This document shows positions 3,995-25,362 of a stretch of 64,000 bases of DNA, in pieces. The stretch comes from a phage, in the sequence record PZ154897.1, one strand, 5' to 3'. Under the pieces are notes generated by a model that did no database searches, had not been told where the DNA came from, and saw only the letters and a program-made list of their open reading frames with translations. The position numbers and the translations under genes were made by a program. Numbering within the stretch: the first letter of the stretch is position 1; every line of letters begins with the position of its first letter.

Positions 3995-3998
3995 AAAT

Positions 3999-4287: not shown

Positions 4288-4294
4288 ATTTTCC

Positions 4295-4375
4295 TCACTG
4301 GCGTCCGAAGACGCCTTTAGTTTTAAGATTGTTACGATAGAACTGCATCACATGTTCATTATGGAAATTACTCAT
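4295..4375 (-). CDS. stp: Stp peptide (26 aa)
   Basis: hand translation gives [26 protein letters not shown], matching T4 Stp as I recall it; TAATG overlap with ndd stop. Confidence 0.9.
4300..4315 (-). other. UUCG-tetraloop RNA hairpin inside stp coding sequence
   Basis: ggcgtc-cgaa-gacgcc on + strand = GGCGUC UUCG GACGCC on mRNA. Confidence 0.5.
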
Positions 4376-4830
4376 TAATATGCCTGCAAAACAAATTTAA
4401 AGTTATCAGCCAACATACGGTTCATTTCTTCAAGCGTTTGATACTCAGAATGATGATTACGAGTAAACGCTAAAGCTAACTGACCTTTTCCAAATCCCGT
4501 CGTCAGAGGTTTCATCTTAGAAGCAGGTAGATAAAATACTGTGTATGGAACATTATTATTTGCAATAGTACGCGCAAGCTGAGATCGACGCTGGCGAATA
4601 TGACTTAGAACTGCACTGAATCCTTGCTTAGAACGCTGATTACCTACATAAAATCGTGCAGATACACATGGACTATCAAATGGACCACCAAATTTGCTCA
4701 CTAAAAAGTAAAATCCAGGGTTAGACAAAATGTCTTTATGCGGAGTTCCAAAAACCCATTCACCGCCCTTGATTGTACCAATAACAGTTGCGCCTGCATT
4801 ATTCAAATCAGTAACAGTCATATATTTCAT
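4375..4830 (-). CDS. ndd: Ndd, host nucleoid disruption protein
   Basis: 151-aa ORF, T4 Ndd length; position next to stp. Confidence 0.8.
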
Positions 4831-4889
4831 GTTAATTTCCTCTAATTATTTTCTACTCCAAGGCCGCATGAATGCACACGGCCGATAAA

Positions 4890-5105
4890 TTAATCGTCGC
4901 AGTCGACGCTCAATTCCCAGAACTCTTCTACAGTATAAGTTTCAGTATCATTTTCAATACAGAAACGTTCATTGCTGTTGTTTGCTAAAGTAGCGTTAAC
5001 TGTCATTTTCTCGCTAGTGCTCTTAAGAGGAGAAATACGAATTAACTGATCACCATTATCTAAGCAAAAAATTTCGCCAACTTTTATATCTTTAAAAAAT
5101 TTCAT
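4890..5105 (-). CDS. hypothetical protein (71 aa)
   Basis: ORF. Confidence 0.5.
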   Translation of the reverse strand: MKFFKDIKVGEIFCLDNGDQLIRISPLKSTSEKMTVNATLANNSNERFCIENDTETYTVEEFWELSVDCDD

Positions 5106-5113
5106 AATTCACC

Positions 5114-5221
5114 TCAAGGAGTATAAAATCCAAATGCAGTTGTTGACCATCCCATCCAATATGGGATATTTGCGCCAATGTAAAATACAAGAATATAAAA
5201 CCAAATGCTTAGTAAATTCAT
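5114..5221 (-). CDS. micro-ORF, hydrophobic peptide (35 aa)
   Basis: hand-translated; ATG overlaps stop of upstream ORF (TAATG). Confidence 0.35.
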   Translation of the reverse strand: MNLLSIWFYILVFYIGANIPYWMGWSTTAFGFYTP

Positions 5222-5418
5222 TATTTTACACCATTCCAAATTGTTTCAACCACAGATTTCAAACCATTTTGGTGAATATCCATTCCGACAACCGCCATCA
5301 AATAGATTCCAACCACAACTGAACCCAAGGCGAAAATCAGCATGAAAATGAATAAAGCTGGAAAAATATTATCGAAAAACCATTCCATAAATGTAAAAGC
5401 ACTGCGTTTACGCTTCAT
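5221..5418 (-). CDS. small membrane protein (65 aa)
   Basis: ORF-track 5221..5439 trimmed to ATG with GAGGA SD. Confidence 0.5.
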   Translation of the reverse strand: MKRKRSAFTFMEWFFDNIFPALFIFMLIFALGSVVVGIYLMAVVGMDIHQNGLKSVVETIWNGVK

Positions 5419-5425
5419 ATTTTCC

Positions 5426-5539
5426 TCACATAAATCCAAAGTAAGCGTTTAATACATCAATCATTAAAATGATTGGGAATATACTTAAAACTACTAGTAT
5501 TATAACTACATTCCATATAGCTTTAACAATCTTTTTCAT
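5426..5539 (-). CDS. small membrane peptide (37 aa)
   Basis: internal ATG of ORF 5426..5674; GGAGG SD; early promoter directly upstream. Confidence 0.5.
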   Translation of the reverse strand: MKKIVKAIWNVVIILVVLSIFPIILMIDVLNAYFGFM

Positions 5540-5559
5540 TTTCTGTTCCTCCGTAGTTG

Positions 5560-5598
5560 ATAGGGTAATAATACCACAGAGGAACAGTCTTGTAAACA
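5560..5598 (-). promoter_or_regulatory. T4-type early promoter (GTTTAC -35 / TATTAT -10) with flanking 9-bp inverted repeat
   Basis: minus strand reads GTTTACaagactgttcctctgtggtATTATTA; near-identical to cassette at 60905-60962. Confidence 0.6.
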
Positions 5599-5604
5599 AC
5601 TTTT

Positions 5605-5703
5605 TTAAAAATATTCGTAATAAATGTGAATACCAACTACTACTGCTGAAACTTGCGCAACCCACCATGCACAAGCAATAAGTACAGAATTCAAAATTTT
5701 CAT
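5605..5703 (-). CDS. micro-ORF, hydrophobic peptide (32 aa)
   Basis: hand-translated; GAGG SD; ATGA overlap with upstream micro-ORF. Confidence 0.4.
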   Translation of the reverse strand: MKILNSVLIACAWWVAQVSAVVVGIHIYYEYF

Positions 5704-5786
5704 AATAACCTCATCACAAAAGTAAATGTTAAACAAATTAATGGAATACTAATTAACCAAACGAAACACCACCATAATGAACTCAT
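5700..5786 (-). CDS. micro-ORF, hydrophobic peptide (28 aa)
   Basis: hand-translated; ATGA overlap with stop of ORF 5783..6046. Confidence 0.4.
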   Translation of the reverse strand: MSSLWWCFVWLISIPLICLTFTFVMRLL

Positions 5787-6046
5787 AGTTCAATCTCAGC
5801 GATTTTCATTTCATTACTATTAATAGCCGCTTTAAGACTATCTGAAAGAATTACATTCCAGTGGTCATTCATATGACCATTAACTAAGCGTGTAATTTCT
5901 TCGGGAGTTGAAAAATAAGGCGTATCAGACTCCCAATGCGATAGTCCCAAGCGAGTATAAATCATACCTTCATCACCGCTAGAATATTCAACTGACACAA
6001 ACTCATCAGTTATTTTATGTTTAGCGTAATAAAATTTAAATTTCAT
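5783..6046 (-). CDS. hypothetical protein (87 aa)
   Basis: ORF with GGAGG SD and early promoter upstream. Confidence 0.55.
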   Translation of the reverse strand: MKFKFYYAKHKITDEFVSVEYSSGDEGMIYTRLGLSHWESDTPYFSTPEEITRLVNGHMNDHWNVILSDSLKAAINSNEMKIAEIEL

Positions 6047-6069
6047 TTTTACTCCTCCGTAGCTGATAG

Positions 6070-6104
6070 TTGTATAGTACCACGGTCCTTGTGGTATGTA
6101 AACT
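6070..6104 (-). promoter_or_regulatory. T4-type early promoter (TTTACA -35 / TACTAT -10)
   Basis: minus strand reads cagTTTACAtaccacaaggaccgtggTACTATA then conserved leader. Confidence 0.6.
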
Positions 6105-6119
6105 GTTTTGTGAAAATTT

Positions 6120-6677
6120 TTAAATGGAAAGATACCATCCGTTGTAGTTGCTTTTTCTTACAACCTTACGAAGGTCTTCTCTATCACCGATGAACTTCGG
6201 AGTGTACTGGATGACACCTGGATGAATTTCTTTAGTGTTGAATATAATTATACAGTCAGCGACTTGGTGATTCAGAATGGGCCCTAGATTTATTCCAGAA
6301 CCGTATGGATACTCTCCGCTGCATCCGGTTGTTACCGAAATCCAACGTGAGTCAGTTTGGTGTGTCTTAACTTCTACACGAAGCCCACAGTATTTTGGAT
6401 GCGCCAATACATCCCATGCGTATGTATACGGGTCATTAACATCCTCTTGGCCTTTGTTAACATACCCGCTTAGCCAATCTGCTACAAAAAACTCTGCATA
6501 TACAGCGATACGACATCTTTCAATAACTTCTGCTTTATCCTGATTAGGATTTTGTTTTAAAGAGTATCTTGCTGTATCAGCAATTTTGACCTTCATTTCA
6601 CTAGTCAAATCATTGTTCGATAGGGTAAATGTTGGAATCTGAAATAGTCTCTGTAAACCCGGATTCGTTTTCTGCAT
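6120..6677 (-). CDS. denB: endonuclease IV (DenB)
   Basis: 185-aa ORF, T4 DenB length; synteny between ndd region and rIIB. Confidence 0.75.
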   Translation of the reverse strand: MQKTNPGLQRLFQIPTFTLSNNDLTSEMKVKIADTARYSLKQNPNQDKAEVIERCRIAVYAEFFVADWLSGYVNKGQEDVNDPYTYAWDVLAHPKYCGLRVEVKTHQTDSRWISVTTGCSGEYPYGSGINLGPILNHQVADCIIIFNTKEIHPGVIQYTPKFIGDREDLRKVVRKSNYNGWYLSI

Positions 6678-6742
6678 TAAACTTTCCTTTTACGTCGGAA
6701 TCACTGATATTCATATAATAAATCATAGTTTCTCTTAAAACA

Positions 6743-6760
6743 AAAGGGCCGAAGCCCTTT
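6743..6760 (-). terminator. intrinsic terminator, UUCG-tetraloop hairpin plus U-tract
   Basis: aaagggc-cgaa-gcccttt; mRNA AAAGGGC UUCG GCCCUUU followed by UGUUUU. Confidence 0.6.
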
Positions 6761-6763
6761 ATT

Positions 6764-6958
6764 TTATTTGAATTGTGCAATTCTTTTCTCTAAACAATCT
6801 GCATAAGATTTCATTGAGATAAACTGCGAAAGCAACAGTTCTTGCTCAACTGCATTAACCGTTGAAAACTTTTCACTTTCTAAAAATTTGCTCAATGCAT
6901 TAATTTTGAGCATTAATTGATCGTATTCTTCTTTTACTCGTGCTTGATAACCTAACAT
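6764..6958 (-). CDS. hypothetical protein (64 aa)
   Basis: ORF between rIIB and denB. Confidence 0.5.
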   Translation of the reverse strand: MLGYQARVKEEYDQLMLKINALSKFLESEKFSTVNAVEQELLLSQFISMKSYADCLEKRIAQFK

Positions 6959-6971
6959 AATTTTCCTTAGT

Positions 6972-6989
6972 TAAGGGCCGAAGCCCTTA
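6972..6989 (-). other. UUCG-tetraloop RNA hairpin overlapping rIIB stop
   Basis: taagggc-cgaa-gccctta. Confidence 0.5.
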
Positions 6990-7925
6990 TTTAAATTGTT
7001 CAGTAACGTCTTCAACTACTTCGTATTGGCAGGTACGCATTTTAGCATCGTTGTAATCAATTGGAATTGATACTACATCGCGAGGATGTACTTTAACTTT
7101 TACAACTCGGCTGGTTGAACTGCCAAAGTGACGAATATAAGATTTAGAACACACATGCAGACCATGAGAACAAGTTTGTGTATCATCGTCATTCACACGA
7201 GTACGTGGCATTTTAACTACTTTACCCGGACTGTTATCAAAGGTGTTTGAGTGACAGTCAAAGTAATTGCTACGAACTACTTTCCAAGCATAGAAGTAAC
7301 CATCTTCTGTAATTTCAATATCGTTTGCTACCAAGAAATCAAAGAGTCGAGATACCGCTTTTTGGCTTGGGTTTTCCAACAGATTTTCCAAGAACGGAAA
7401 ATAAAATTCAAAGTTTTCGCCTTTTTCCATCGAGTCAAGAATACGATCAACCAAACCAGACCGCAATTCAATATTTTGATAGAACAGGCTTCCACCTTCA
7501 ATTCGAACATCGCCGGAAATATATTTTTCAACAGCGCGACGAACATTAATTTTTTGTGCCGCTTCTTCCAATTTATCTGCAACAAGCAGATTAAGAATTT
7601 CCTGGAAGTTTGAATGAGTATTAGGAGTTGCGTTATAAGTTACACCGTCAACAGTAATTGAAATGAATTTTTTAGATGCATTCCAAATAATGTCAGATTT
7701 AGCAACTGGAGCAATAACTGCATCGCTATTAACTTTAACTGTAATATCACCGCTAATAGTAACTTTAGGGCGTTTAGCTTCTTCAGCATTTTTCAAAACA
7801 CGACGGATTGTGTCAACCGATACATCCTTCCAATAAGCCAATTCCTGTTGGGTGTAATTACCGCTTGAATACAGTTTAACAATTTCAGCTTGTTCGTTTT
7901 TGGTCAGGCATTTAATATTGTACAT
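6987..7925 (-). CDS. rIIB: rIIB membrane-associated protein
   Basis: 312-aa ORF, T4 rIIB length; adjacent to rIIA. Confidence 0.9.
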   Translation of the reverse strand: MYNIKCLTKNEQAEIVKLYSSGNYTQQELAYWKDVSVDTIRRVLKNAEEAKRPKVTISGDITVKVNSDAVIAPVAKSDIIWNASKKFISITVDGVTYNATPNTHSNFQEILNLLVADKLEEAAQKINVRRAVEKYISGDVRIEGGSLFYQNIELRSGLVDRILDSMEKGENFEFYFPFLENLLENPSQKAVSRLFDFLVANDIEITEDGYFYAWKVVRSNYFDCHSNTFDNSPGKVVKMPRTRVNDDDTQTCSHGLHVCSKSYIRHFGSSTSRVVKVKVHPRDVVSIPIDYNDAKMRTCQYEVVEDVTEQFK

Positions 7926-7936
7926 AATTTTCCTTA

Positions 7937-10114
7937 TTAGGCCGCAAGGGCCTTCATAGTTTTAGCGATTTGAGAAACTTCATCATCACTTAAAGAGTTG
8001 CGATATCCGATGAAGTCGGAAACAATACGGAATTTCTTGGTAAACTCAGCAACCATTTTATCACTGTTTTTTGAAGCATTATTTGATAATACATCAAAAA
8101 GATTAGTTACTGTCCAGATGTCATGACCGATGGTATCTCTTCCACCATTAAAATATACACCCTGTAATGAACTAACCATATTAGCAAGTCGTGTATATTC
8201 TTCAGAAACTTCATCTACACTGAAGTACTTCATCATAAAATCTAACTCAGGATACTTGATAATTTTATCAATATATCGTTTAGCTGAACTTGAATAACCT
8301 ACATACTTATCATAATCTACATCATCAAAAGCATCTACATATAAATCACGCAGAGTTTCAAAAATACATTGGCACTGACCGAGTTCTTTTACCTTTTTCT
8401 GTAAAAGCGGACGAATAACATAAAATTCATTAATGCCAATAAGATTAGCCATACGAATCAAAATATTCATAGATGGATGACAGAGAGATGTAGTACCATC
8501 CATAGAGAAAATATCAGAACGATGCATATACGCTACATAACCAGTAATTTCATCTGCTTCTGATGTGAGCGTAAACAGTTCCTCTTTTTCCCAGCGCCCA
8601 TCTTTAATTTCAAACTTAAATACTGTAGCAGCTTTAGGACGAGGAGCTTTACTTTTAACTACCTTTGGAATATAGCTTTTAACTAAAGCTTCAATTTCTG
8701 ACAAATAATGAATGTTAACTTCATCACTTTCAAACATTGCCATAATATCAGGAAGTAAATCAATCTGTGATTCTACTTCCGGATTAATAAACAGAAGACG
8801 CTCGTTGTGATGAATATTTAAAGTGTTATTAAATTCACTATCATCTAATGCACGTGCTAATCCACGGACAATATTAACACGATTTTTAATATTATCAATA
8901 ACGATATTAATTTTTGTTGTATTAATACCAAACAGACGATAACTTGATGCAACGGCTGAAGTTTCATGGCTTTGCTTAATGCGTTTCAGTCGAGGGTCAA
9001 GATTTACTTCATACACAACCCCTGCATTGCATAACTTACTGTCAGGTTCAAACATGCTTTGCATCTTCTTATATGACAGATTTTTAGTCGTGAATTTGAC
9101 CGAATTACTAATCATATAATCTCGAGCAGAATATCCCATCTTCATCAATTCACGGTATGTATGACGAGGAGATGTAGATTCTTTAAATCGTTTTACATCT
9201 TCATTAAATGCCTTCTCACTGAGCTCTTTAACACGCTCAATAATATTTTTACGAGTACGATCATCTAGTGAAAGAGCCTCACGCGATGGAGCAATATCAA
9301 GTGAACCCATTGGAAACTTAATGTAATTCACTTCATTACGAATGCTTAACCAGTTACGGTCTCTAATAACACCGTCTATAGGATAAACAATACCACCATA
9401 GATAGCATATAATCCACCACGATCTGGCCAGTATCTTTCTGGATTTACGCCGTAATAATCATCAAAATCAGGAAAATAATCAATTTCGCGGTCAAGACCA
9501 TTAATGATAGCCAAATCTTTGAATGGTCGCATGATATAAGAAACTTCATAAGCAAAGTTTCTAAAGTCTTTTTCTTCAACTGGAACTACGATTTCAATAC
9601 CAGTTTTATCGTCTGGACCCATTTCTTTTACGAATGTAGGTTTAATCTGCGGACCGTCACCATCCATGTAAGCTACATAACCACGAATTTCGCCTTTATG
9701 ATATGAAGTGATACTAAACGTATCAGTATAACTAAACGGAGATTTAGAACCTAAACCAAATCCACCAATGAAATCATTAGATTCAGCCTTAGATGAACTG
9801 AAGTATGAATTATACAACCCAGGAGAATTATCATCACCCTGAATATCAAAATCGCTCATACCCGGACCAAAATCTCGACAAACAAATCGCGGATCTAATC
9901 GTCCTGGAACTTGAATGATAAATTTTTCAGGATTTCCATTAAGAGCATGGGCATCAATCATGTTGGTAATCAATTCACGAACCACTGCGCGAATCTTGTT
10001 TGTATACAAATCAGATGACAGAATTTTAAATACTTTAGGAGACGCTGTGATGCTAAATGCTTTTGATTTAGAACCATTACCAAGAATTGTTTCTTTTTCA
10101 GTGGTGATAATCAT
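7937..10114 (-). CDS. rIIA: rIIA protein with GHKL-type ATPase domain
   Basis: 725-aa ORF, T4 rIIA length; N-terminal [10 protein letters not shown] / GLGSKSPF ATPase motifs. Confidence 0.95.
7939..7953 (-). other. short GC hairpin at rIIA/rIIB junction
   Basis: aggcc-gcaag-ggcct. Confidence 0.4.
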
Positions 10115-10124
10115 AATTTCCTCA

Positions 10125-10328
10125 TTAATTCATATTGCGTTTAATAACTTCAGCAACTTCTAGTAGTTCATCTTTAGTTGCAGTGTCGGATTGAATTTTA
10201 TCTCTAATATCCTTAAAGCGGTTTTTAAACTCTTCGGCTTCTCCCATATCGAAAAAGCGTTGAATGATTCTATATTCTCGATGAACTGCTTTATCAAATA
10301 GTTCTAAATTTACTTTATATGATTTCAT
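10125..10328 (-). CDS. hypothetical protein (67 aa), rIIA.1 position
   Basis: ORF between gene 39 and rIIA with early promoter upstream. Confidence 0.55.
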
Positions 10329-10351
10329 TTCAATATCCTCATTTGCCCAAT

Positions 10352-10384
10352 TAATTATACCACATCCTTGTGGTAAAGTAAACT
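10352..10384 (-). promoter_or_regulatory. T4-type early promoter (GTTTAC -35 / tggTATAAT -10)
   Basis: minus strand GTTTACtttaccacaaggatgtggTATAAT; 29/30 identical to promoter at 57950. Confidence 0.65.
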
Positions 10385-12200
10385 ATTGGCTCATCCATTC
10401 TTTACGAAGGTCAGCATTATCTCCCATGAGCATTTCAAAAAGCTCTTTCCAGTTCTCAGGAAGTTTAACAACATCATAAACTGGGTTTTGAATCATCTCA
10501 CGATATTCAGATTTTTCCAAAGAGCCAAGTCCCTTAATATAACGGATGCTATGTTTAGGTAGAGCATCTTTGGCACTCTCATATTCAGCGACTGTATAAA
10601 ACCATTCTTGTTTTTTACCGACCTGAGCGATGATTACAGGAGTTTTGACAAAGCGAATTCTTCCTTGTTCAAACAGTTCTGGCCAATTACTAAAAAATCC
10701 GAGCAGAGAAGGATAAATGCTTCCTAGACCATCATGGTCAGCATCGGTCATAATTGCAATATTATGATAATTCAAGTTTTCGGCTTTTTCACCAAGAACT
10801 AATCCAGTGATTGCGCAAATATCAAACAGTTCTTTGTTTTTAAGCATATCAGCATATGACATACCCCAACTGTTGAGAACTTTACCACGTAATGGATAAC
10901 CACCATGAAGTTCTTTATCACGAACATCAATAAGATATCCAATAGCAGAATCACCCTCAGTCAAGAAAAGAGTAGTATCAGCATCTTTACCACAAAGATT
11001 CGCTTTAATATGTTTATGAACCTTAGCTTTAGAAGCCTTTTTAGCTGCTTTAGTTTCTGCTGCTTTTTCTGCCGCCAATTTACGAGCAAGGGCAGCTTCA
11101 ATGATTGGCATTAAAATTGCTTCATTATTTAAAATAGCACGTGAAATCTTTTTAGCATCAAGCTGAATATGACTACGGATTTCACCAAATGGAGAAGTAA
11201 GTCGTTCTTTAGTTTGAGAATCAAATCGCATGTTTTTCATATCACGGACAAACATAACGATAGTCAAACATTCTTTGACACGTGCTTTAGTTACATCAAT
11301 TTTGAATTTACGTTTGATTTGTGGAATAAGGTCTTCACAAATATCATCCATAACGCAGTCAATGTGATGGCCACCATTCTTAGTATGAATGTTATTGACG
11401 TATGTTAATTGACGAAAACCATCCGGTGAACGACCAACAGCAATAGAACAATTTTCTTGTTCTTGAACGATAGCATGTTCATCATACTGTCGTGCATATT
11501 TCTTAAAATTACCCTGAACCTTTTTACCATTAAAGGTAAATTGAATATCAGGATAAACTACTGCAAGTGTCTGGAGACGATCCAGTGTAATGTCAAGATA
11601 AACTTGAGATAGCTCATTAGTTTCAAATGACATAAAATCAGGAATGAAAGTAACGCGAGTTCCTTTCCATTTTCCAGGAATAGTTTCCCACGATTTATTT
11701 TCCATGCCATTTGAACAACGAACTACAATATTATTTTGACCATCGCCGGTTTCACCGACAAACATCACAGAAAAAATATTAGTTAAACTAGAACCAACAC
11801 CATTCATACCACCAGTGACGCGTTCTTTATCATCACCGAAGTTACCACCTGCTTTTGGAATAGTCCATGCAGCAACTGGACCAGGAATTTCTTCACCGGT
11901 AGGTGTTTTAACCATCGCCTGTGGAATACCGCGACCGTTATCTTCAACTGTTACTTGATTGTTTTTAATAGTAACATTAATTTTATTTGCGAATTTAAAC
12001 TTAGTACGAATACCTTCATCTACTGAGTTATCGATAATTTCATCAATAAGCTTAACAAGACCAGGTACATACTGAACACTTTCCCATTTACCAAACAGAA
12101 AGCGCTCATGCATTTCATTAGCTGAAGAGCCAATGTACATGCCGCTACGCTTTTTGATATGTTCAATATCGCTCAGAATTTTAATTTCATTCTTAATCAT
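10383..12200 (-). CDS. 39: DNA topoisomerase II large subunit (GyrB-like ATPase), contiguous 39+60
   Basis: 605 codons from first ATG (ORF track starts at GTG 12203); GHKL ATPase and TOPRIM-like motifs; single uninterrupted ORF. Confidence 0.95.
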   Translation of the reverse strand: MIKNEIKILSDIEHIKKRSGMYIGSSANEMHERFLFGKWESVQYVPGLVKLIDEIIDNSVDEGIRTKFKFANKINVTIKNNQVTVEDNGRGIPQAMVKTPTGEEIPGPVAAWTIPKAGGNFGDDKERVTGGMNGVGSSLTNIFSVMFVGETGDGQNNIVVRCSNGMENKSWETIPGKWKGTRVTFIPDFMSFETNELSQVYLDITLDRLQTLAVVYPDIQFTFNGKKVQGNFKKYARQYDEHAIVQEQENCSIAVGRSPDGFRQLTYVNNIHTKNGGHHIDCVMDDICEDLIPQIKRKFKIDVTKARVKECLTIVMFVRDMKNMRFDSQTKERLTSPFGEIRSHIQLDAKKISRAILNNEAILMPIIEAALARKLAAEKAAETKAAKKASKAKVHKHIKANLCGKDADTTLFLTEGDSAIGYLIDVRDKELHGGYPLRGKVLNSWGMSYADMLKNKELFDICAITGLVLGEKAENLNYHNIAIMTDADHDGLGSIYPSLLGFFSNWPELFEQGRIRFVKTPVIIAQVGKKQEWFYTVAEYESAKDALPKHSIRYIKGLGSLEKSEYREMIQNPVYDVVKLPENWKELFEMLMGDNADLRKEWMSQ

Positions 12201-12225
12201 CACTTATCCTCGTTTGGTTTCGGGA

Positions 12226-12254
12226 ATATTATACTCCAGTAATCATAAAGCTAA
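12226..12254 (-). promoter_or_regulatory. possible middle-type promoter for gene 39 (MotA-box-like AGCTTTA, 12 bp, TATAAT)
   Basis: minus strand tAGCTTTAtgattactggagTATAAT; box has one mismatch to TGCTT. Confidence 0.35.
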
Positions 12255-12270
12255 AGGCCCGAAGGCCTTT
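12253..12270 (-). other. UUCG-tetraloop RNA hairpin
   Basis: aaaggcc-cgaa-ggccttt immediately after lipoprotein gene stop. Confidence 0.55.
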
Positions 12271-12530
12271 TATTTAAAACGAATAGTCGAATCCTTGAAG
12301 AATAGTCCAGAACATACTGTTCCTTCTACTTTCTGCCCAGTAGGTCCAATAGCACGAAATCCAGTATGTTGGAAATCATTTTCAGAGCAACCGAACCAAT
12401 TATATCCAGTGATTTCAATATTAGTAAAACCACTTGAAGACAAAACTTTAGTTGCATTATCAGCATCAGTACATCCTACTAAAGACACTGCTAATACTAA
12501 TGCTGCAATAGAACGATTAATATATTTCAT
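12270..12530 (-). CDS. putative lipoprotein (86 aa)
   Basis: N-terminal signal peptide ending LVGC (lipobox). Confidence 0.55.
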   Translation of the reverse strand: MKYINRSIAALVLAVSLVGCTDADNATKVLSSSGFTNIEITGYNWFGCSENDFQHTGFRAIGPTGQKVEGTVCSGLFFKDSTIRFK

Positions 12531-12532
12531 AA

Positions 12533-12709
12533 TTACCCTTTAAGCAAGTCGTAAAATCCACCATTCACATGCTTAGGAGCGGAAACTAACCGAATAGCAA
12601 TCCGATGACAATCAGGACATACATCAGTATCCCTTTCAGAAATTTTCTTGATTTTTTCGTATTCTTTTGCACAGTCTTTGGATTGACATTTATAATCATA
12701 AAGCGGCAT
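12533..12709 (-). CDS. small zinc-ribbon protein (58 aa)
   Basis: hand-translated; CxxC...CxxC pattern; AAGGA SD; fills gap between ORFs. Confidence 0.45.
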   Translation of the reverse strand: MPLYDYKCQSKDCAKEYEKIKKISERDTDVCPDCHRIAIRLVSAPKHVNGGFYDLLKG

Positions 12710-12711
12710 AA

Positions 12712-13137
12712 TTATTCCTTAAAGTGAGCTTTCAACATCTGATACAAGGACCATGCTTGTTCATTATTTTCAATAGTAACTTTCATTACCGGGAATTCTG
12801 TGAAATCTTCTATTTGTTCTTGCTCTTTCTCTTCCTGCTCTTGCTCTTCAGCTGCCTGGTATGGATTTTCAACTTCATCAAAGAATTCAGCTTCGCTCGC
12901 TGAAAGCCAGATAAAATCTTCATCCAAAATATCTTTACCAGAAGATAACGCCAATTTTCCACTAGATGTCACAAGTTTAGTAGGACGACCAAGATAGTCA
13001 ATATCTGTAACTCTAAAAGGTTCCATACCTAAACGTCGTGCATAAATTCCGTTTTCAGTATGATATTTAATAAATTTTTCTTGAGCTTGTTTATTTTTAA
13101 ATTGATACCATTTATTAACTTCAAATTTAATAGCCAT
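12712..13137 (-). CDS. hypothetical acidic protein (141 aa), possibly GoF-like by size and position
   Basis: ORF; acidic E/Q-rich tract. Confidence 0.5.
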
Positions 13138-13352
13138 TAATAAATTTCCTTCCAGTAAGTTGTACCGTCTTCAGTGATTTCACGAAATACGCCATAAATT
13201 GGTTGTTTATCACCGACTTTCTCATACACATAAACAGAAGTCAAGTGAGTAAACTTGCTAGTATGTTCCTTTTGAACTACTACCAAATTTGGATCAAATA
13301 ATACATCTTCAAATTCATCATTAGTGCAATTCTGAACAATTTTACGTTTCAT
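13137..13352 (-). CDS. hypothetical protein (71 aa), possibly Cef-like by size and position
   Basis: ORF; ATGA-type overlap with upstream gene. Confidence 0.5.
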
Positions 13353-13449
13353 TACAATTTCCTCATTAATTGAACATTGGAGCGATGCGTTTCAGAAGAG
13401 TATCAGCACCTTTAACGAATTATCCATTTTATTCTCCAAGTTGTTTTCT

Positions 13450-13496
13450 GTATCAGTAGTTGATATTGATATAGTACCATAATCAACTACTGATGT
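13450..13496 (-). promoter_or_regulatory. promoter-associated stem-loop: 13-bp perfect inverted repeat enclosing tggTACTATA
   Basis: atcagtagttgat ... atcaactactgat with 17-nt loop holding the conserved -10-like module. Confidence 0.5.
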
Positions 13497-13523
13497 ATAT
13501 AGTTTTATGAAAAATTTTAAACT

Positions 13524-14021
13524 TTATGCACAGCGAGCTTTGCTATAGTGTTTAATCCAACTTTCAGGAATGGCTTTGTATGTTCCTAAAAATACCGCAT
13601 TGTACAACTTAACGCCATCTTCTACCCACTGATCGGTAATGTATGCGCACATAGCACGAGTACGGTGTTTTTGAACAACCCCTTCCTCATCTTCAGTAAA
13701 TTCGAATTCATAAGGAGCAATGAACTTAATAGCTTGACCGAGTTTCCACTTAAAGTCTACACCTACATGCGAAGTATCAATCGTTTCAATTCCTTTAGCG
13801 GGAACAGCTTTCAAAAACGCAGATTCAAGAAATTTCGCACGAACATAGCCAAACTGAGGTTTAGACTTTCCATCTTTAGGAATGATACGCACTTTTACTT
13901 CAGAATCTTCATCTTTAACACCATGTTTAAGCTGAATGCTTACAATTTCGACCAATTTTCCTGCTGCTTTAGAACGGGATTTATCAGATACACGAGCAAT
14001 TTCACCAATATTAATAATCAT
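13524..14021 (-). CDS. hypothetical protein (165 aa), paralog of next gene
   Basis: ORF; shares DQWVEDGVKLYNAV-type segment with ORF 14098..14640. Confidence 0.55.
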   Translation of the reverse strand: MIINIGEIARVSDKSRSKAAGKLVEIVSIQLKHGVKDEDSEVKVRIIPKDGKSKPQFGYVRAKFLESAFLKAVPAKGIETIDTSHVGVDFKWKLGQAIKFIAPYEFEFTEDEEGVVQKHRTRAMCAYITDQWVEDGVKLYNAVFLGTYKAIPESWIKHYSKARCA

Positions 14022-14062
14022 AGTTATCTCTCACTTGTTAAAAAGATTTTATACTCCACAGG

Positions 14063-14095
14063 ACCATTATACTCTGGCCCCAAGAGTTTGTAAAC
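14063..14095 (-). promoter_or_regulatory. T4-type early promoter (TTTACA -35 / TATAAT -10)
   Basis: minus strand TTTACAaactcttggggccagagTATAAT. Confidence 0.6.
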
Positions 14096-14097
14096 TA

Positions 14098-14640
14098 TTA
14101 ATTCAAAATAGCTACCACTGCACTACGAGGTACTACACTAAAATCACCTGCATGAACAACATTCAGAAGTTCAACGCCATCTTCAATCCACTGGTCTGTT
14201 ACCCAACCACAGACCGAAACAAATGGGGTCTTAATAGCTACAGCACGAGTTAGAAGGTCAGTAGGGTCTTGTTCTTCAACTTCTTGGAACAGGATGAACC
14301 CTTCTTCATAAACCAGGATTTTCTCTATTTTGTTATTGTCTAAACGACGACCGTGGACAATATAAGATTTAGTAAACCATTTACTTTTTTCAAAGTCTTC
14401 AACAATAAATTCGCCTTCGCCAAAAACAACAGTCAGAGTTTTATGGCCGGAAATCAAGGCATTAGTTTTAATTTTAGGTTCAACCAGTTTGTAAGTTTTG
14501 CCGATTTCAATAGCGGTAGTCATAGTAGGTTCCTTAATTTCCAGCGGTTTAACAGGGCATACATAAGTGCTTACAACATCAAAATCAATCAGTTTAGCTA
14601 CCGGATTTGGAGTGTATTCAGGATTATAATTAAATTTCAT
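14098..14640 (-). CDS. hypothetical protein (180 aa), paralog of previous gene
   Basis: ORF; conserved DQWIEDGVELLNVV segment. Confidence 0.55.
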   Translation of the reverse strand: MKFNYNPEYTPNPVAKLIDFDVVSTYVCPVKPLEIKEPTMTTAIEIGKTYKLVEPKIKTNALISGHKTLTVVFGEGEFIVEDFEKSKWFTKSYIVHGRRLDNNKIEKILVYEEGFILFQEVEEQDPTDLLTRAVAIKTPFVSVCGWVTDQWIEDGVELLNVVHAGDFSVVPRSAVVAILN

Positions 14641-14642
14641 AA

Positions 14643-15143
14643 TTATCTCATTTCAATAAAATCTACGAGTTCAGCATGCGATTTGCGGAACATTACTTGG
14701 CGTCCGCCAATGATAACTTGGTCATCTGGCACTTCGTATACAGCAAGATAAAATCCCTTAGAAGATAATTCTTCACGCTCTTCTCGTGTGAACCATCTCA
14801 TCATATCATATTCGCTAGCGAAAGCAAAATGATAAAGACCTATAAACCATCCTGGAATATGATATTCTACTCCAACATAATCTTTCTTGAACTTAGTATT
14901 AATTACGATATTAGCATTTTTAACTAATAATTTGTCTTCATGTGGAAGAGGAATTCTTTTATTATCATTACTATGATGCATAAAATTAGGTCTGTCATAA
15001 CCTACGTGTAATAACCACTCTTCGCTCCATGAATCTATTATACTCCTGTATGGCGTTATTTGACCACAAAGATTTCGACGTATTGTTATAGCATCTTCAT
15101 TATTAAGAATACTAAAAGATGATTCAACACGATAAATTTTCAT
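14643..15143 (-). CDS. hypothetical protein (166 aa)
   Basis: ORF-track 14643..15182 trimmed to ATG with GAGGA SD downstream of promoter. Confidence 0.5.
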   Translation of the reverse strand: MKIYRVESSFSILNNEDAITIRRNLCGQITPYRSIIDSWSEEWLLHVGYDRPNFMHHSNDNKRIPLPHEDKLLVKNANIVINTKFKKDYVGVEYHIPGWFIGLYHFAFASEYDMMRWFTREEREELSSKGFYLAVYEVPDDQVIIGGRQVMFRKSHAELVDFIEMR

Positions 15144-15167
15144 TTTATTATCCTCAGTAGCTATGGT

Positions 15168-15201
15168 GTTATAATACCACAACTAACCGAGGAAGTAAAC
15201 A
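15168..15201 (-). promoter_or_regulatory. T4-type early promoter (GTTTAC -35 / TATTAT -10)
   Basis: minus strand GTTTACttcctcggttagttgtggTATTAT. Confidence 0.6.
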
Positions 15202-15206
15202 ACTTT

Positions 15207-15890
15207 TTATCGTTTTGTTGGAAGAGATAGAGGATCGCAATCTTCCTCTGATGGAGCATCTTCAAGACCCATAGCGTATCGCAAAGCATACTTCATCATC
15301 AGGATGTCTTTCGCACAGTCATGAATAGAATTATGCGCAACAAATCCATCTAAAGTTCCCTTTGGAAGGGGACACGTTGTCATATCACGAACAAGTAGAA
15401 GTGCTTCAATTCTGGTACGAATATCACGCTGATTCCAGAATTTACATGGTTCTAACTTAAATGTGTCAAGTTCATTCTCAGAAACGCCATTAAGACGTTG
15501 AATATCGCGAATGAGATCGACTAAAATTGGAAAATCAAACGACATTCCACGGCACCAGCCTTGAGATTTCCAAGGATCGATGTTATGTGCATTGATGTAA
15601 TCATTAAATTTTACAATACCATCGATAGTGCTTACATCTTCATCTGATGGCGCAATATTTTTTCGAGCTTCAGGAGACTGATTTTTCCACCATTCGATAG
15701 TGCTTTTAGTAAAAAGACGATGTCCTTTTTGGCTTTTTAAATCAAATTTGATTTTAATGCCACGTGAAACTAATTCATCAAATGTTTCAACTACTTCTGG
15801 GTTAGGGTCAAAGGCAATAACAGCCAAATCAATAACAGCTGCCTTTTCACCGCTTCCCATTGTTTCAAAATCTATAATAAAATCAAACAT
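15207..15890 (-). CDS. dexA: exonuclease A (DnaQ-like 3'-5' exonuclease)
   Basis: 227 codons from first ATG; FIIDFETMG exonuclease motif I. Confidence 0.8.
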   Translation of the reverse strand: MFDFIIDFETMGSGEKAAVIDLAVIAFDPNPEVVETFDELVSRGIKIKFDLKSQKGHRLFTKSTIEWWKNQSPEARKNIAPSDEDVSTIDGIVKFNDYINAHNIDPWKSQGWCRGMSFDFPILVDLIRDIQRLNGVSENELDTFKLEPCKFWNQRDIRTRIEALLLVRDMTTCPLPKGTLDGFVAHNSIHDCAKDILMMKYALRYAMGLEDAPSEEDCDPLSLPTKR

Positions 15891-16128
15891 TAATAATCGC
15901 CTTATAAAGATTGCTAATTTCACCTAAAATGTAATCACTGATTGTAACAGTTTTCACTTCACCACAAAAGAATTCTAACGCAATCAAATCTCGTTCAATT
16001 TCTTCTAGTTGAAGCATTAACTTGCCTGATTTAATTTTTACATTTGTACAATTTTTACTATAAGCTATTTCATAAATTTCGCTCACTTTATCTTGGAGCA
16101 GATAAAACTGATCTTTAGTTATTTCCAC
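15883..16128 (-). CDS. hypothetical protein (81 aa)
   Basis: ORF between dda and dexA. Confidence 0.5.
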   Translation of the reverse strand: MEITKDQFYLLQDKVSEIYEIAYSKNCTNVKIKSGKLMLQLEEIERDLIALEFFCGEVKTVTISDYILGEISNLYKAIINV

Positions 16129-16149
16129 GAATAGCTTCCTTAAATTTAA

Positions 16150-17469
16150 TCATACATAAAACACATCATAACGACCACGAGTGACACCAACATAAAGAAG
16201 CTGCTGAGCTAGTTCAGCATCTGCATAATGAATACAAGGCGTATAGATGAAAGCACGATCTACAGACATGCCCTGAGCTTTGTGGAATGTTGATGCAGGA
16301 AGTGCTTTCACTTTACTAAACTGTGATTTAGCATCCCAAAAATCACTCCACGGAGCTTTTCCGCCTTTATTCCAATTTTTATAAGTTTCTGCCGTTTTAC
16401 CTAAAAATAAGTTAAACTTATACAGCTCTTCATCAGATGAAATTATTTTAATCTTTTCACGATAATATTCATCATCGCCGTAAGTTTCTACTGTTAAATC
16501 CCAATGACGAATTAGATATTCTCCAGAAACACCGCGAGCTTTAACAAATGTTGATGTATACTCTGCTTCTATAATACGAACTAATTGTCCGTTATTAAAA
16601 ATAATTTCTGACACAGGCTTTCCATCAATTTTATATGTTTTAATTAACGGTTCCTGCATTACAATAATTTCACCGACAATAAAATCTTTATCAGTTTCAA
16701 AAATCTTTTTACGAATAATGCTATTTAACTTATCAACAGATTTATTCGTAAATGCCATTACACGATTTTCAAACAAATCATCTAAAGATTTGACGATTGA
16801 AAAATAATTTACCATAAAATCGCGTAAAGCGGTATCACCAGTAAATCCACGTACTCCATGTCCGTCAACAATTTTATCATAAATCCACTTACCGTTACGA
16901 ACATCAGTAGCTACATCAATAATAGGAGCATTACTGCGTTTAACTTCAGTAAGTTCACACTGATAAAAATCTTTGTGTGTAAAGAATGGACTGATATAAG
17001 CAGTATTTTCTCCTGGGTCAACAGGTCTAATTTGCTTATTATCGCCTATTCCAATTATAGTACACCACGGCGGGATAGTTGAAAGCAGAATTTTAAATAG
17101 CTTTCTATCATACATTGACACTTCGTCGCAGATTAATACCCTGCATTTAGCTAAATCTGGTACTTCCTTCTGTTCAAAAAGAACGTTTTCTTCATACGTA
17201 ACTGGGTTAATTTTAAGAATACTATGAATAGTACTTGCTTCTTTCCCCGACAGTTTTGAAAGAATCTTTTTAGCTGCATGTGTAGGAGCTGCTAAAATAA
17301 TACCAGTTTCACCCGTAGATATTAAAGCTTCAATGATGAACTTAGTAAGAGTAGTCTTACCAGTACCAGCAGGTCCATTAATAGTTACATGATGTTTCTT
17401 TTCTTTAATAGCCCTCATAACAATGTTAAAGGCATTTTTCTGGCCTTCGGTCAAATCATCAAATGTCAT
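16150..17469 (-). CDS. dda: Dda DNA helicase (SF1)
   Basis: 439-aa ORF, T4 Dda length; Walker A GPAGTGKTT. Confidence 0.93.
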   Translation of the reverse strand: MTFDDLTEGQKNAFNIVMRAIKEKKHHVTINGPAGTGKTTLTKFIIEALISTGETGIILAAPTHAAKKILSKLSGKEASTIHSILKINPVTYEENVLFEQKEVPDLAKCRVLICDEVSMYDRKLFKILLSTIPPWCTIIGIGDNKQIRPVDPGENTAYISPFFTHKDFYQCELTEVKRSNAPIIDVATDVRNGKWIYDKIVDGHGVRGFTGDTALRDFMVNYFSIVKSLDDLFENRVMAFTNKSVDKLNSIIRKKIFETDKDFIVGEIIVMQEPLIKTYKIDGKPVSEIIFNNGQLVRIIEAEYTSTFVKARGVSGEYLIRHWDLTVETYGDDEYYREKIKIISSDEELYKFNLFLGKTAETYKNWNKGGKAPWSDFWDAKSQFSKVKALPASTFHKAQGMSVDRAFIYTPCIHYADAELAQQLLYVGVTRGRYDVFYV

Positions 17470-17777
17470 CGTAAATTCCCTGCAATTGGTATACTAACAA
17501 TACGCCCAGTATCTAAAATTCGCTGATATAATCTTTGTGTGTCTACATCAGGCTTAACATGTTTAACTTCTATTTTATTAAACCAAAATTTACGTGGAGT
17601 CTCAACTAATCTTGGAATTCCCTTGCCTAAAGCTAGTTGATACTGCTCTTTAAGAGTGGTAAATACTTTGTCAGCAATATTCCATTCAAAAAATACAGCA
17701 GGACGATGTTCATCAAGTGGAACTGGCGCCGTAAATCCGTCTTTGTCTCGGTAAACTATCGCATATACATAAACCAT
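17466..17777 (-). CDS. hypothetical protein (103 aa)
   Basis: ORF; ATGA overlap with dda. Confidence 0.55.
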   Translation of the reverse strand: MVYVYAIVYRDKDGFTAPVPLDEHRPAVFFEWNIADKVFTTLKEQYQLALGKGIPRLVETPRKFWFNKIEVKHVKPDVDTQRLYQRILDTGRIVSIPIAGNLR

Positions 17778-17778
17778 A

Positions 17779-18525
17779 TTATCCTCGGATAAGTTTAAAA
17801 ATTGAACAATTCAGCGGGTATCCTCTTTTCAGTTTAAGTTTATCAATAAAAGACAAATTTTGATACCGCTCTACACCTTGAATAATTTTATCACACATAT
17901 CATATTGCATTTCTGCTTCTGACAGCTTTTTCACAGTTTTCCAATCCGAGCCTTTAAGAAGAACGTTCAATTTAACAACTTCAGCGCCTTCTGCTATACG
18001 AGAACCATCAATACGAGCTTTGAGTGCTACAATCGTTAGCTTAACGTCAGAAGTTTGTTTTGATTTAGAAAGCTGAGAAATGTGTTCAATTCGGTTTTCA
18101 CGTTTTTTCTGTATAGCTTTAATTTGATTATAAGTCTTTTTGATTTTAGCCCATTTCTTTTCATCTAAATTTAGTTTATGAACTTTTTTCGCAGATGAAC
18201 GACCAATTCGCAAAGCAAATAAATCACGCTTTTCAATCAACTCTTCTAAAGTATAATCAGAACGAAATGTATTATACTTTTTCTTTACTGCAATAACATT
18301 CCCTTTAATGTATCCAACATTATTATCAAAACGTTCTAATGATAATTTCTCTCCTTCAATACGATTATCAAAAGGTTCTCCTGAGTAAGCGCAAACTTTC
18401 TGATCTAAAATGTTCTTAATGTAATTGAAGTCTAAGTTAAAATCTTTAGAACGTCTTTTAGCAGATGCCTGAGTATGCTCTAAACGACGTGTAATTTTAC
18501 GAATTTGATTTTTAGACAGTTTCAT
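17779..18525 (-). CDS. srd: Srd-like protein (248 aa)
   Basis: size and position between modA and dda as in T4. Confidence 0.6.
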   Translation of the reverse strand: MKLSKNQIRKITRRLEHTQASAKRRSKDFNLDFNYIKNILDQKVCAYSGEPFDNRIEGEKLSLERFDNNVGYIKGNVIAVKKKYNTFRSDYTLEELIEKRDLFALRIGRSSAKKVHKLNLDEKKWAKIKKTYNQIKAIQKKRENRIEHISQLSKSKQTSDVKLTIVALKARIDGSRIAEGAEVVKLNVLLKGSDWKTVKKLSEAEMQYDMCDKIIQGVERYQNLSFIDKLKLKRGYPLNCSIFKLIRG

Positions 18526-18551
18526 ATTTTTCTCACGGACGGGTTAACTAC

Positions 18552-19864: not shown

Positions 19865-19885
19865 GATAGCCTCCATATACTTCAG

Positions 19886-25360: not shown

Positions 25361-25362
25361 TT

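Follow-up and report, generated by a model that had tools for sequence, protein, structure and literature searches.

Phage T4 carries its topoisomerase gene 39/60 in split form, while in the DNA analysed here (64,000 nucleotides of phage record PZ154897.1, called the window throughout) gene 39, which encodes the large subunit of topoisomerase II, is uninterrupted. The locus raises the question of which arrangement is the derived one, and of how the endonuclease genes of the window stand in relation to those of T4. The features on which the answer relies are collected in Table 1.

Counted from its ATG, the gene 39 ORF consists of 605 codons and a stop, the open frame reaching position 12203 via one extra GTG codon; it is flanked by rIIA.1 (10125..10328) and 39.1 (12270..12530), and the partner gene 52 is present (2669..3994, its product 99.3% identical to T4 gp52). 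Residues 1-473 correspond to residues 1-473 of T4 gp39 at 98% identity and residues 472-605 to residues 27-160 of T4 gp60 at 96% identity. At the junction the codons GAT GGT CTA GGA (D-G-L-G, 10722..10733) follow one another and the coding gap is absent. GHKL ATPase, transducer and an uninterrupted TOPRIM are all encoded in the one ORF, which matches the Pfam domains HATPase_c, DNA_gyraseB and TOPRIM_C as well as phrog_543 (7e-296). Structures have been solved for T6 gp39 and for a T4 fusion with its TOPRIM insertion (PMC11461880): the window protein aligned with the T6 chain 8ylu_C in one stretch, 1-605 to 1-605 (1388 bits), and with the T4 gp39-gp60 fusion 8yo3_C in two stretches separated by the TOPRIM insertion. 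Together with gp52, the single 605-aa gp39 would make up the two-subunit type IIA topoisomerase known from T2 and T6. The annotation of RB32 and RB51 calls the contiguous gene '60plus39'.

The blocks collinear with T4 break at window 10718/10783, which corresponds to T4 2793/3911. The intervening T4 cassette (2794..3910, comprising the bypass, 60.1 and mobA) had no match in the window by low-stringency blastn (word size 7, E <= 10), chance matches aside. A 50-nt bypass coding gap with its take-off GGA, stop codon and landing GGA was not found in gene 39, 60.1 had no tblastn match in the window, and the annotated T4 mobA fragment matched by tblastn only an HNH gene at another locus (38964..39053). 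A preliminary description of this DNA had listed one 605-codon ORF with no mobA, no gene 60 and no bypass element, and all of this was borne out by the alignment.

What the window has at this position is a 64-nt segment, gene nt 1419-1482. Insertion of MobA has been reported to remove 64 nt of the parental Topo2L gene, with a diverged HomR, nick site included, taking their place (Manning & Atkins, bioRxiv 10.1101/2022.08.31.505936), and the T4 split has been described as the derived state (same authors; Edgell et al., PMC2988022). We read the match between the segment and this published insertion geometry as support for a parental allele. The segment shows only a weak match of 46 nt, 74% identical, to the T4 cassette region, as against near-identity to T2 and T6. 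Over the 120 nt from gene nt 1381 to 1500, three synonymous differences separate the window from T2, two of them inside the segment; such differences near the homing site could affect recognition by MobA. Among phage records the uninterrupted gene 39 junction was found in 466 and the T4 cassette in about 43 (~90% uninterrupted), which identifies the contiguous gene as the common, parental state. Judged by its sequence, gene 39 is the parental allele, and T4, not this phage, is derived; the preliminary description had framed the comparison the wrong way round.

The gene could also have been split once by the MobA cassette and then restored to one frame when the element was lost precisely ('hit and run'). 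Clades with excision and a re-formed single ORF have been reported (Manning & Atkins), this course being proposed for an Aeromonas phage clade, and the cassette circulates in close relatives such as PD112, F26 and GRNsp7. The known cases, however, retain C-terminal and N-terminal extensions derived from the element, while gene 39 of the window has the length of its T2 and T6 counterparts, aligns with them free of gaps and with no extra residues, and contains zero residues that align to the T4 extension sequences; its 64-nt segment is the near-identical parental version. As leftover extension residues are lacking and the T2/T6 alignment is gap-free, we reject such an excision, which we hold to be highly improbable. 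A past invasion followed by ordinary recombination restoring an uninvaded allele would leave an identical sequence, so that a gene 'never invaded' is not provable.

With gene 39 as the parental allele, the course of events in T4 would be as follows. A MobA element of ~1.1 kb would have inserted into the TOPRIM-coding region, deleting 64 nt, and would have brought with it the diverged HomR and the 50-nt bypass, so that ribosomes hop the gap and the invaded allele is shielded from MobA. This cassette mechanism has already been published (Manning & Atkins 2022; Bonocora 2011, PMC3182709, cited through PMC2988022, PMC11461880 and the Manning & Atkins preprint). As the window retains the 64 nt, it would retain an empty MobA homing site, near-identical to the T2 site reported to be nicked by MobA. 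Intact MobA is found in T4T, RB59 and HY01; the copy of laboratory T4 is defective. Gene 39 of the window would be expected to convert to the split form when a MobA-positive phage infects the same cell.

Table 1. Position and strand of the features discussed, numbered along the window
Feature	Position	Strand	Details
Gene 39, topoisomerase II large subunit, T2/T6 '60plus39' type	10383..12200	-	single ORF, 605 aa
64-nt parental segment, region of the predicted empty MobA homing site	10719..10782	-	replaces T4's 1117-nt cassette
soc-56 interval without segF	22337..22707	-	two small ORFs, 57 aa and 66 aa; phrog_9053, phrog_5782
Gene 56 (dCTPase), T2-type allele	22707..23225	-	aa identity 98.3% to T2 gp56, 69.8% to T4 gp56
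uvsX, T2-type allele	28784..29965	-	aa identity 99.5% to T2, 90.0% to T4
Beta-glucosyl-HMC-alpha-glucosyltransferase, T2/T6 type	30043..30885	-	in place of T4 segA and beta-gt; phrog_842 1.2e-89; Pfam TAGT
Late-promoter motif TATAAATA	38884..38891	+	upstream of the 45.2/46 HNH ORF (feature 38884..39641)
Putative HNH homing-endonuclease gene, free-standing, between 45.2 and 46	38925..39641 (ORF)	+	238 aa; antisense to neighbours; phrog_655 1.3e-68
Gene 46 (SbcC-like recombination nuclease subunit)	39634..41322	-	95.3% aa identity to T4 gp46; HNH genes on both sides
Putative HNH (Mob-like) homing-endonuclease gene, free-standing, between 46 and 46.1	41338..42192	-	284 aa; phrog_655 8e-45, phrog_12434 (HNH)
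a-gt / a-gt.2 junction	45025..45050	.	T4 mobB (862 bp) absent; from alignment blocks
SegH, putative GIY-YIG-type homing-endonuclease gene, between nrdG and nrdD	49840..50670	-	in place of T4 mobC; 276 aa; phrog_314 2.4e-60; NUMOD3
nrdD, intron-less	50663..52480	-	intact 605-aa ORF; T4 intron position = 51942..51945
SegG-like free-standing endonuclease gene, between nrdD and 49	52471..53292	-	273 aa; phrog_7504 1e-33; NUMOD3
Predicted membrane protein at T4 mobD position, after nrdC.11	63409..63870	-	153 aa; phrog_944 1.3e-49

The relation of the window to T4 as a whole was assessed by alignment. The gene order is collinear with T4 161584..168903 and 1..56449, and many proteins are 98-100% identical to those of T4, among them gp43 (99.3%), gp41, gp55, gp49, and Stp and NrdC (100% each); the near-identity of gp43, Stp and NrdC had been anticipated in the preliminary description. 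These likenesses would suit a window that is simply T4, with the T4 gene content wrongly given in the preliminary description. Against it, nucleotide identity to T4 is only 94.0% over the 56.3 kb aligned, the T4 reference does contain 60, 60.1, mobA, segF, segA, beta-gt, mobB, mobC, I-TevII and mobD at the expected positions while the window contains none of them, and the phage collection has no record that agrees with the entire window at an identity higher than about 96-99%. The 94.0% identity and the 17 non-collinear segments rule out an identity with T4, to which we concede as good as no chance. Several alleles are strongly diverged from T4 (Soc 47%, NrdC.3 61%, gp56 70%, Mrh 78%, NrdG 79%), and none of the 11 homing-endonuclease genes of the interval (seven in T4, four in the window) is common to both genomes.

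The non-collinear sequence amounts to ~15.7 kb, of which ~9.3 kb (~60%, counted from the alignment block boundaries) is related to homing endonucleases. The remainder is made up by the exchange of beta-gt for the T2/T6 beta-alpha-gt and by replacements or insertions of small ORFs at the arn, motB.1, dexA.1, 43.1, 55/55.1, nrdH-upstream, 49.3 and mobD positions. The phage had been described as a close T-even relative whose differences from T4 are concentrated in endonuclease content: it is a T-even phage, T2/T6-like, and not T4, but 'concentrated' overstates a share of that size. The best partial matches were N2 (99.1%, 25-50 kb), SP21535 and IME537 (96%, 1-25 kb) and F26 (95.9%, 45-64 kb), and none of the phage-collection records matched the window at >=99% throughout. 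By these alignments the window is a mosaic Tequatrovirus, absent as such from the phage collection. Combined, the results are very probably best explained by a mosaic Tequatrovirus with a parental gene 39 and four free-standing endonuclease genes of its own.

None of segF, segA, mobB, mobC, the nrdD intron with I-TevII, or mobD was found at its T4 position in the window; the absence of seg-like ORFs between uvsX and the glycosyltransferase and between 56 and soc, and the lack of an nrdD intron had all been noted beforehand and were confirmed. In place of the segF region (T4 15509..16270) the window has 465 bp with only the two small ORFs, the 66-aa one being 85% identical to a T2 ORF in the same position. 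At the segA position an ORF-free 77 bp separates uvsX, whose 5' 600 nt are only ~75% identical to T4, from the glycosyltransferase gene. The product of the latter is 98.2% identical to the T2 protein, and T4 beta-gt had no tblastn match in the window; the T2/T6 beta-glucosyl-HMC-alpha type of this enzyme is a detail to be added to the preliminary description. SegF and SegA are reported to target gene 56 and uvsX, respectively (PMC2988022 Table 1). The logic set out for gene 39 would extend to both loci, as the window has T2-type alleles of these reported targets. The mobB and mobD genes, which had not been mentioned earlier, are also missing from their T4 positions. The blocks at the mobB position are 42171..45025 (T4 34963..37817) and 45050..46598 (T4 38679..40230). 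Collinearity with T4 stops at window 63413 (T4 56449); T4 MobD matched by tblastn only the two HNH genes of the window, and mobD is missing from the T4 position within the sequence covered.

Endonuclease genes do occur around gene 46 and nrdD, as had been described, two at each locus. They were assigned to families by PHROGs matches and by their pairwise similarity to the Mob and Seg proteins of T4, the Pfam HNH and GIY-YIG and the NCBIfam scores being sub-threshold. In nrdD, the blocks 50688..51942 (T4 43560..44814) and 51945..52421 (T4 45850..46326) place the missing 1035-bp T4 intron exactly at 51942/51945. Rfam returned no group I intron or structured RNA in the whole window at the gathering threshold, while the T4 nrdD intron, used as a positive control, was found (RF00028, 105 bits); I-TevII had no match in the window at E <= 1e-5 and, at E <= 1e-2, only a weak match of 30% identity to SegH. 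The ends of the SegH gene overlap the start of nrdG and the stop of nrdD. Its product is 46-49% identical to the N-terminus of T4 SegA, has sub-threshold I-TevI DNA-binding and Pfam SegE_GIY-YIG domains (the latter 18.6 bits, cut-off 25) and scores 50.2 on TIGR01453 (cut-off 56). The gene is 100% identical in nucleotide sequence to the annotated SegH of PP01, F2 and SYGD1, and was found in 73 records in all. On the other side of nrdD, the SegG-like protein has no Pfam GIY-YIG match; over its N-terminal ~125 aa it shares 40% identity with T4 SegG (E 9e-27, 128 aligned positions), and its C-terminus is unrelated. This gene occupies the same locus in 51 records.

Both HNH proteins at gene 46 match phrog_655 'homing endonuclease' and align to T4 MobB, MobC and MobD. 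The N-terminal 130 aa of the protein encoded between 45.2 and 46 are 47% identical to T4 MobB; the protein has three CxxC..H..C repeats (zinc-finger-like) and reaches 16.9 bits on Pfam HNH (cut-off 21.4). Its gene lies on the opposite strand, a further detail added to the earlier account, and the late-promoter motif upstream of it, which would drive its expression, is present in 2 copies in the 64 kb against 10.65 expected, and is depleted elsewhere. The protein encoded between 46 and 46.1 has no Pfam match and is 30% identical to T4 MobD across 243 aa. The two genes are patchy at fixed loci, with 60 and 71 records among about 500-700 with the neighbouring gene 46: the first set includes RB32 and RB33, with the RB51 label RB32ORF054w, and the second includes T6, with 100% identity in N2, GRNsp7 and BYEP01. 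To our knowledge, the annotation of the RB32ORF054w-type and T6-type HNH genes goes no further than 'putative homing endonuclease'.

Going by the Seg and Mob enzymes that have been characterised, we infer that the four resident putative endonucleases would cut or nick the neighbouring genes in alleles that lack the endonuclease, and that their genes would then spread by recombinational repair, carrying flanking sequence along. Co-conversion and marker exclusion have been described (PMC2988022). Tracts of low identity to T4 are found at the endonuclease loci (22801-23200, 29401-30000, 39601-39800, 49401-49851, 50601-50800 and 52201-52421), and the drop in identity to 70-85% beside these loci would follow from homing with co-carried flanks. 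However, low-identity tracts are also found where no endonuclease gene is near (goF, mrh, nrdC.3, and window 401-1000), so that flanking divergence is not specific evidence for homing.

As two HNH genes enclose gene 46 and two Seg-type genes enclose nrdD, the pairs could be cooperative 'HEG-islands' that mobilise the enclosed alleles rather than four independent insertions. Such bracketing occurs in ICP1-like phages (Barth et al.), and the divergence from T4 is greater for gp46 (95.3% identity) than for the adjacent gp45 and gp47 (98%). The distribution among records argues otherwise: co-occurrence is near the level expected for independent genes, as the gene 46-flanking pair was found together in 12 records against ~8 expected (60 x 71 / ~510) and the nrdD-flanking pair in 12 against ~7 (73 x 51 / ~510), in counts that include GenBank/RefSeq duplicates and ignore phylogeny, and where one partner is present the other is mostly missing. 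A co-occurrence of ~12 against ~7-8 indicates no strong association of the bracketing genes, and islands of this kind are improbable here; if they were real, the concept, described up to now for ICP1-like phages, would apply to T-even phages as well. No phage-collection record among those listed carries all four endonuclease genes of the window together.

The observation made at this locus is thus accurate but ordinary, and nothing here is new: ~90% of sequenced T4-like phages show this arrangement of gene 39, all the elements have database entries already, and each of the four endonuclease genes recurs at its locus in 51-73 records. The underlying biology is already established: intronless homing, the co-conversion of markers on the flanks, and a gene 60 bypass that arose as part of a mobile cassette. 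The significance beyond correct annotation is little, and no new principle emerges from the window, which comes from the large set of T-even phages that have a topoisomerase II of two subunits, glucosylation of the T2/T6 type and another selection from the common pool of free-standing homing endonucleases. A use in reconstructing insertion events had been suggested; for the gene 39 locus this has already been done, with paired genomes of the same kind. In marker-exclusion crosses the genome could provide predicted recipient alleles for MobA, SegF and SegA, and donor alleles for SegH and three less-studied putative endonucleases.

Compared with known systems, the two HNH genes share locus, orientation and 97-100% nucleotide identity with the RB32ORF054w-type (RB32, RB33, RB51) and T6-type genes, with no difference. 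In several T4-related phages SegH is reported to occupy the place of mobC between nrdG and nrdD (Sandegren, Nord & Sjoberg 2005, NAR 33:6203, PMC1275590, as cited in PMC2988022), and the window gene has the locus, orientation and Seg-type N-terminus of these, no difference being detected. The SegG-like protein shares the catalytic N-terminal region of T4 SegG, a GIY-YIG enzyme encoded between 32 and 59. It differs in being encoded at nrdD/49, in its length (273 aa compared to 210) and in an unrelated C-terminal half, which suggests a different DNA target. With the split gene 39/60 of T4, gene 39 shares the locus and, the insertion excluded, a homologous protein (identity 98% to one T4 piece and 96% to the other); in contrast to T4, the window is without the 1.1-kb element, the coding gap, the element-derived extension sequences and the take-off/landing GGA pair, GGT being followed directly by CTA. 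Its closest counterparts are the gp39 genes of T2 and T6, with the same position between rIIA.1 and 39.1, the same 1818 nt and 605 aa, 96% nucleotide identity and a gap-free amino acid identity of 99.7% (T2) and 99.8% (T6), from which it differs by synonymous or near-synonymous substitutions only, with no structural difference.

Gene 39, encoding the topoisomerase II large subunit, was found exactly as the preliminary description had it, as one ORF of 605 codons (the ORF listing extends it by one upstream GTG codon). Residues 1-473 of its product match residues 1-473 of T4 gp39 at 98% identity and residues 472-605 match residues 27-160 of T4 gp60 at 96%. At the junction, the gene reads GAT GGT CTA GGA (D-G-L-G, 10722..10733) without interruption, whereas in T4 a 50-nt gap separates GAT GGA TAG from TTA GGT. 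Collinear-block comparison placed 64 nt where T4 has 1117 nt. This T4 cassette (T4 2794..3910) contains the bypass, the 5' end of gene 60, 60.1, mobA and the 3' extension of gene 39; searching the entire window at low stringency revealed no trace of it, in line with the reported lack of mobA, of a separate gene 60 and of the bypass. Gene 39 of T2 and of T6 has the same length (1818 nt), the protein alignments are gap-free (99.7% and 99.8% identity, respectively), and three synonymous differences from T2 were seen among 120 nt compared around the junction. In a PDB search, T6 gp39 (8ylu) aligned as a single stretch (1-605 to 1-605, 1388 bits) whereas the engineered T4 gp39-gp60 fusion (8yo3) gave two stretches, because roughly 70 additional residues interrupt the TOPRIM domain of T4.

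The MobA element has a length of 1097-1106 nt, inserts at Topo2L residues 466-473 and removes 55-75 nt of the gene (64 nt in the worked example); a diverged HomR fills the deleted stretch, and the element adds extensions to both halves as well as the bypass cassette (Manning & Atkins, bioRxiv 10.1101/2022.08.31.505936). For every clade with the insertion, the same authors describe insertion-free 'parental' relatives that are 96-99% identical. Combined, the 64-nt segment, the T2/T6-like length and this published geometry argue that the window carries the parental allele, its predicted product being the large subunit of an ordinary two-subunit T-even topoisomerase II (PMC11461880). According to Manning & Atkins, Bonocora et al. 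2011 showed that T2 gene 39 is nicked by intact MobA in the junction region and that the bypass shields the invaded allele from MobA; by its sequence, the window site would be an empty, cleavable MobA homing site. A 201-nt probe spanning the uninterrupted junction matched 466 records and the T4 cassette is present in 43; therefore the contiguous gene, annotated '60plus39' in RB32 and RB51, is the norm (about 90%) and the T4 state the exception.

Features of the window and their relation to T4
Feature	Coordinates	Strand	Details
ORF, phrog_8202 (unknown function)	140..439	-	99 aa; at T4 arn position
phrog_2390 ORF	5783..6046	-	adjoins denB; absent from T4
Gene 39	10383..12200	-	605 codons + stop; ATG at 12200
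64-nt segment	10719..10782	-	gene nt 1419-1482
ORF, phrog_2333	14098..14640	-	180 aa; replaces motB.1; C-terminus resembles MotB (Pfam motB, 3e-8)
dexA.1 deletion	15880..15893		versus T4
Low identity, soc and 56	21801-23200		
Soc homologue	22061..22297	-	78 aa
TATAAATA, second copy	22329..22336	-	directly upstream of soc
Low identity, uvsX 5' end	29401-30000		
Beta-glucosyl-HMC-alpha-glucosyltransferase, T2/T6 type	30043..30885	-	next to uvsX; phrog_842, 1e-89
RB18 ORF43.1-family protein	35372..35635	-	between 43 and regA; absent from T4
Late-promoter motif TATAAATA, perfect match	38884..38891	+	33 nt upstream of HNH gene ATG
Predicted HNH endonuclease gene	38925..39641	+	238 aa; between 45.2 and 46; phrog_655, 1e-68
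Low identity, gene 46 3' end	39601-39800		
Predicted HNH-type endonuclease gene	41338..42192	-	284 aa; between 46 and 46.1; phrog_655, 8e-45
DUF7200 ORF	46604..46873	-	between 55 and 55.1; absent from T4
phrog_2749 ORF	48729..49040	-	upstream of nrdH; absent from T4
Low identity, nrdG	49401-49851		
SegH	49840..50670	-	276 aa; between nrdG and nrdD, where T4 has mobC; identity to annotated SegH of PP01 and F2, 100%
Low identity, nrdD ends	50601-50800, 52201-52421		
SegG-like gene	52471..53292	-	273 aa; between nrdD and 49
Two small ORFs	54744..55132	-	69 aa and 71 aa; replace 49.3
NrdC.3	55940..56866	-	

The window was compared by megablast, as three overlapping pieces, with 50,697 phage records. 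Hundreds of Tequatrovirus (T-even) genomes matched the pieces at 95-99% identity and no single record was the best match throughout: SP21535 and IME537 match 1-25 kb (about 96%), N2 matches 25-50 kb (99.1%) and F26 matches 45-64 kb (95.9%). N2, the nearest relative over the middle part of the window, additionally has a hypothetical ORF of 295 aa (N2 locus 2033..2920) that separates gene 45 from rpbA and is missing from the window. The annotated T4 reference is collinear over 161584..168903 followed by 1..56449, with the shared order arn/motA/52 region, rIIB, rIIA, 39, dda, 56, 41, uvsX, 43, 45, 46, 47, a-gt, 55, nrdG, nrdD, 49, nrdC and nrdC.11, all on the minus strand of the window. Identity was 94.0% across 56.3 kb aligned, with 17 non-collinear segments; the window therefore belongs to a T-even phage other than T4, and the possibility that it is T4 itself was ruled out by this alignment. 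The core proteins said to be nearly identical to those of T4 are so (gp43 99.3%, Stp and NrdC 100%). The proposal that differences are concentrated in endonuclease content holds in part: non-collinear sequence totals about 15.7 kb, of which about 9.3 kb (roughly 60%, by our tally from collinear-block boundaries) relates to homing endonucleases. The remainder includes a glucosyltransferase swap and small-ORF replacements, insertions or losses at arn, motB.1, dexA.1, 43.1, 55/55.1, upstream of nrdH, 49.3 and mobD. Several alleles are highly diverged as well.

Four endonuclease genes reside in the window, two flanking each of gene 46 and nrdD, where the preliminary description had placed them, and none of the 11 in the interval (7 in T4, 4 here) is common to both phages. 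In a 64-kb window whose genes lie on the minus strand, the HNH gene that separates 45.2 from 46 is the sole convincing exception; its product is 47% identical to MobB at the N-terminus and has three CxxC..H..C zinc-finger-like repeats in the C-terminal half (aa 124-144, 178-197 and 213-233). The motif TATAAATA is strongly depleted in the window (2 copies versus 10.65 ± 3.2 expected from shuffles). The SegG-like protein is 40% identical to T4 SegG over the N-terminal 125 aa (E 9e-27), whereas the C-terminal half is unrelated.

The T4 elements reported as missing are indeed absent. The gap between uvsX and the next gene is 77 bp, without segA, and between soc and 56 there are two small ORFs (57 and 66 aa) but no segF. 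The nrdD gene is a single ORF (605 aa) that precisely lacks the 1035-bp T4 intron with I-TevII, and Rfam detected no group I intron in the window while scoring the T4 intron at 105 bits in the same scan. Alignment to T4 and homology search found neither mobB nor mobC in the window, and a membrane protein stands at the position that mobD has in T4. In Lv5cm, vB_Eco_F26 and fPS-2, nrdD apparently contains roughly 1044 bp extra, which the Lv5cm annotation gives as an intron-associated endonuclease, together with SegH and the SegG-like gene on either side; if real, this arrangement would place three mobile endonuclease genes around one nrdD.

Among the differences from T4, the glucosyltransferase swap probably has the greatest functional consequences. 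The enzyme next to uvsX is 98.2% identical to the T2 protein and stands where T4 has beta-gt, which the window lacks. For alpha-gt (43835..45034), identity to T4 is only 90.5%; combined, these features imply T2/T6-style DNA glucosylation. The 99-aa ORF at the position of arn has no detectable similarity to Arn, an McrBC inhibitor. Next to it, 600 bp (401..1000) are merely 62-79% identical to T4, and for most database relatives the match starts at position 995 with nothing before. At the 49.3 position, the 69-aa ORF belongs with phrog_3402, annotated 'antitoxin from a toxin-antitoxin system', and has a sub-threshold Pfam hit (E 5e-4) to the family of the RecBCD inhibitor T7 gp5.9. The other ORF (71 aa) is DUF7205.

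Identity to T4 drops to 70-85% right against the endonuclease loci. Gene 56 and uvsX, the reported targets of SegF and SegA (PMC2988022 Table 1), match T2 alleles (98.3% and 99.5%), and the divergence is consistent with the co-conversion and marker exclusion established for the surroundings of free-standing endonuclease genes (PMC2988022). As low-identity tracts also occur away from endonuclease genes (goF, mrh, nrdC.3), this divergence is supportive of homing rather than specific for it. NrdC.3 is 61% identical to T4 in protein and 63-75% in nucleotides, its neighbours being at 88-99%; this is an abrupt, localised allele replacement, and no endonuclease gene lies close by. The Soc homologue is only 47% identical to T4 Soc, and 52% identical to the ORF that T2 has there, which makes it a third, quite different allele of the capsid decoration protein.

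Two endonuclease genes bracket gene 46 and two bracket nrdD, an arrangement similar to the HEG-islands described by Barth et al. Counted separately, the flanking genes occur in 60 records (HNH, same locus, including RB32 and RB33) and 71 (HNH-type, T6 among them) for gene 46, and in 73 (SegH) and 51 (SegG-like) for nrdD. With trio-spanning probes, for which 80% coverage is reachable only by records with both flanking genes, 12 records were recovered for each trio, whereas independent assortment predicts about 8 (60 x 71 / ~510) and about 7 (73 x 51 / ~510), all counts being raw, inclusive of GenBank/RefSeq duplicates and free of phylogenetic correction; strong linkage is thus not evident. None of the matches listed carries all four genes. 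The preliminary observations were accurate and the biology is ordinary: the contiguous gene 39 and the four endonuclease genes have already been described, and the window is new as a combination of known, independently assorting elements.
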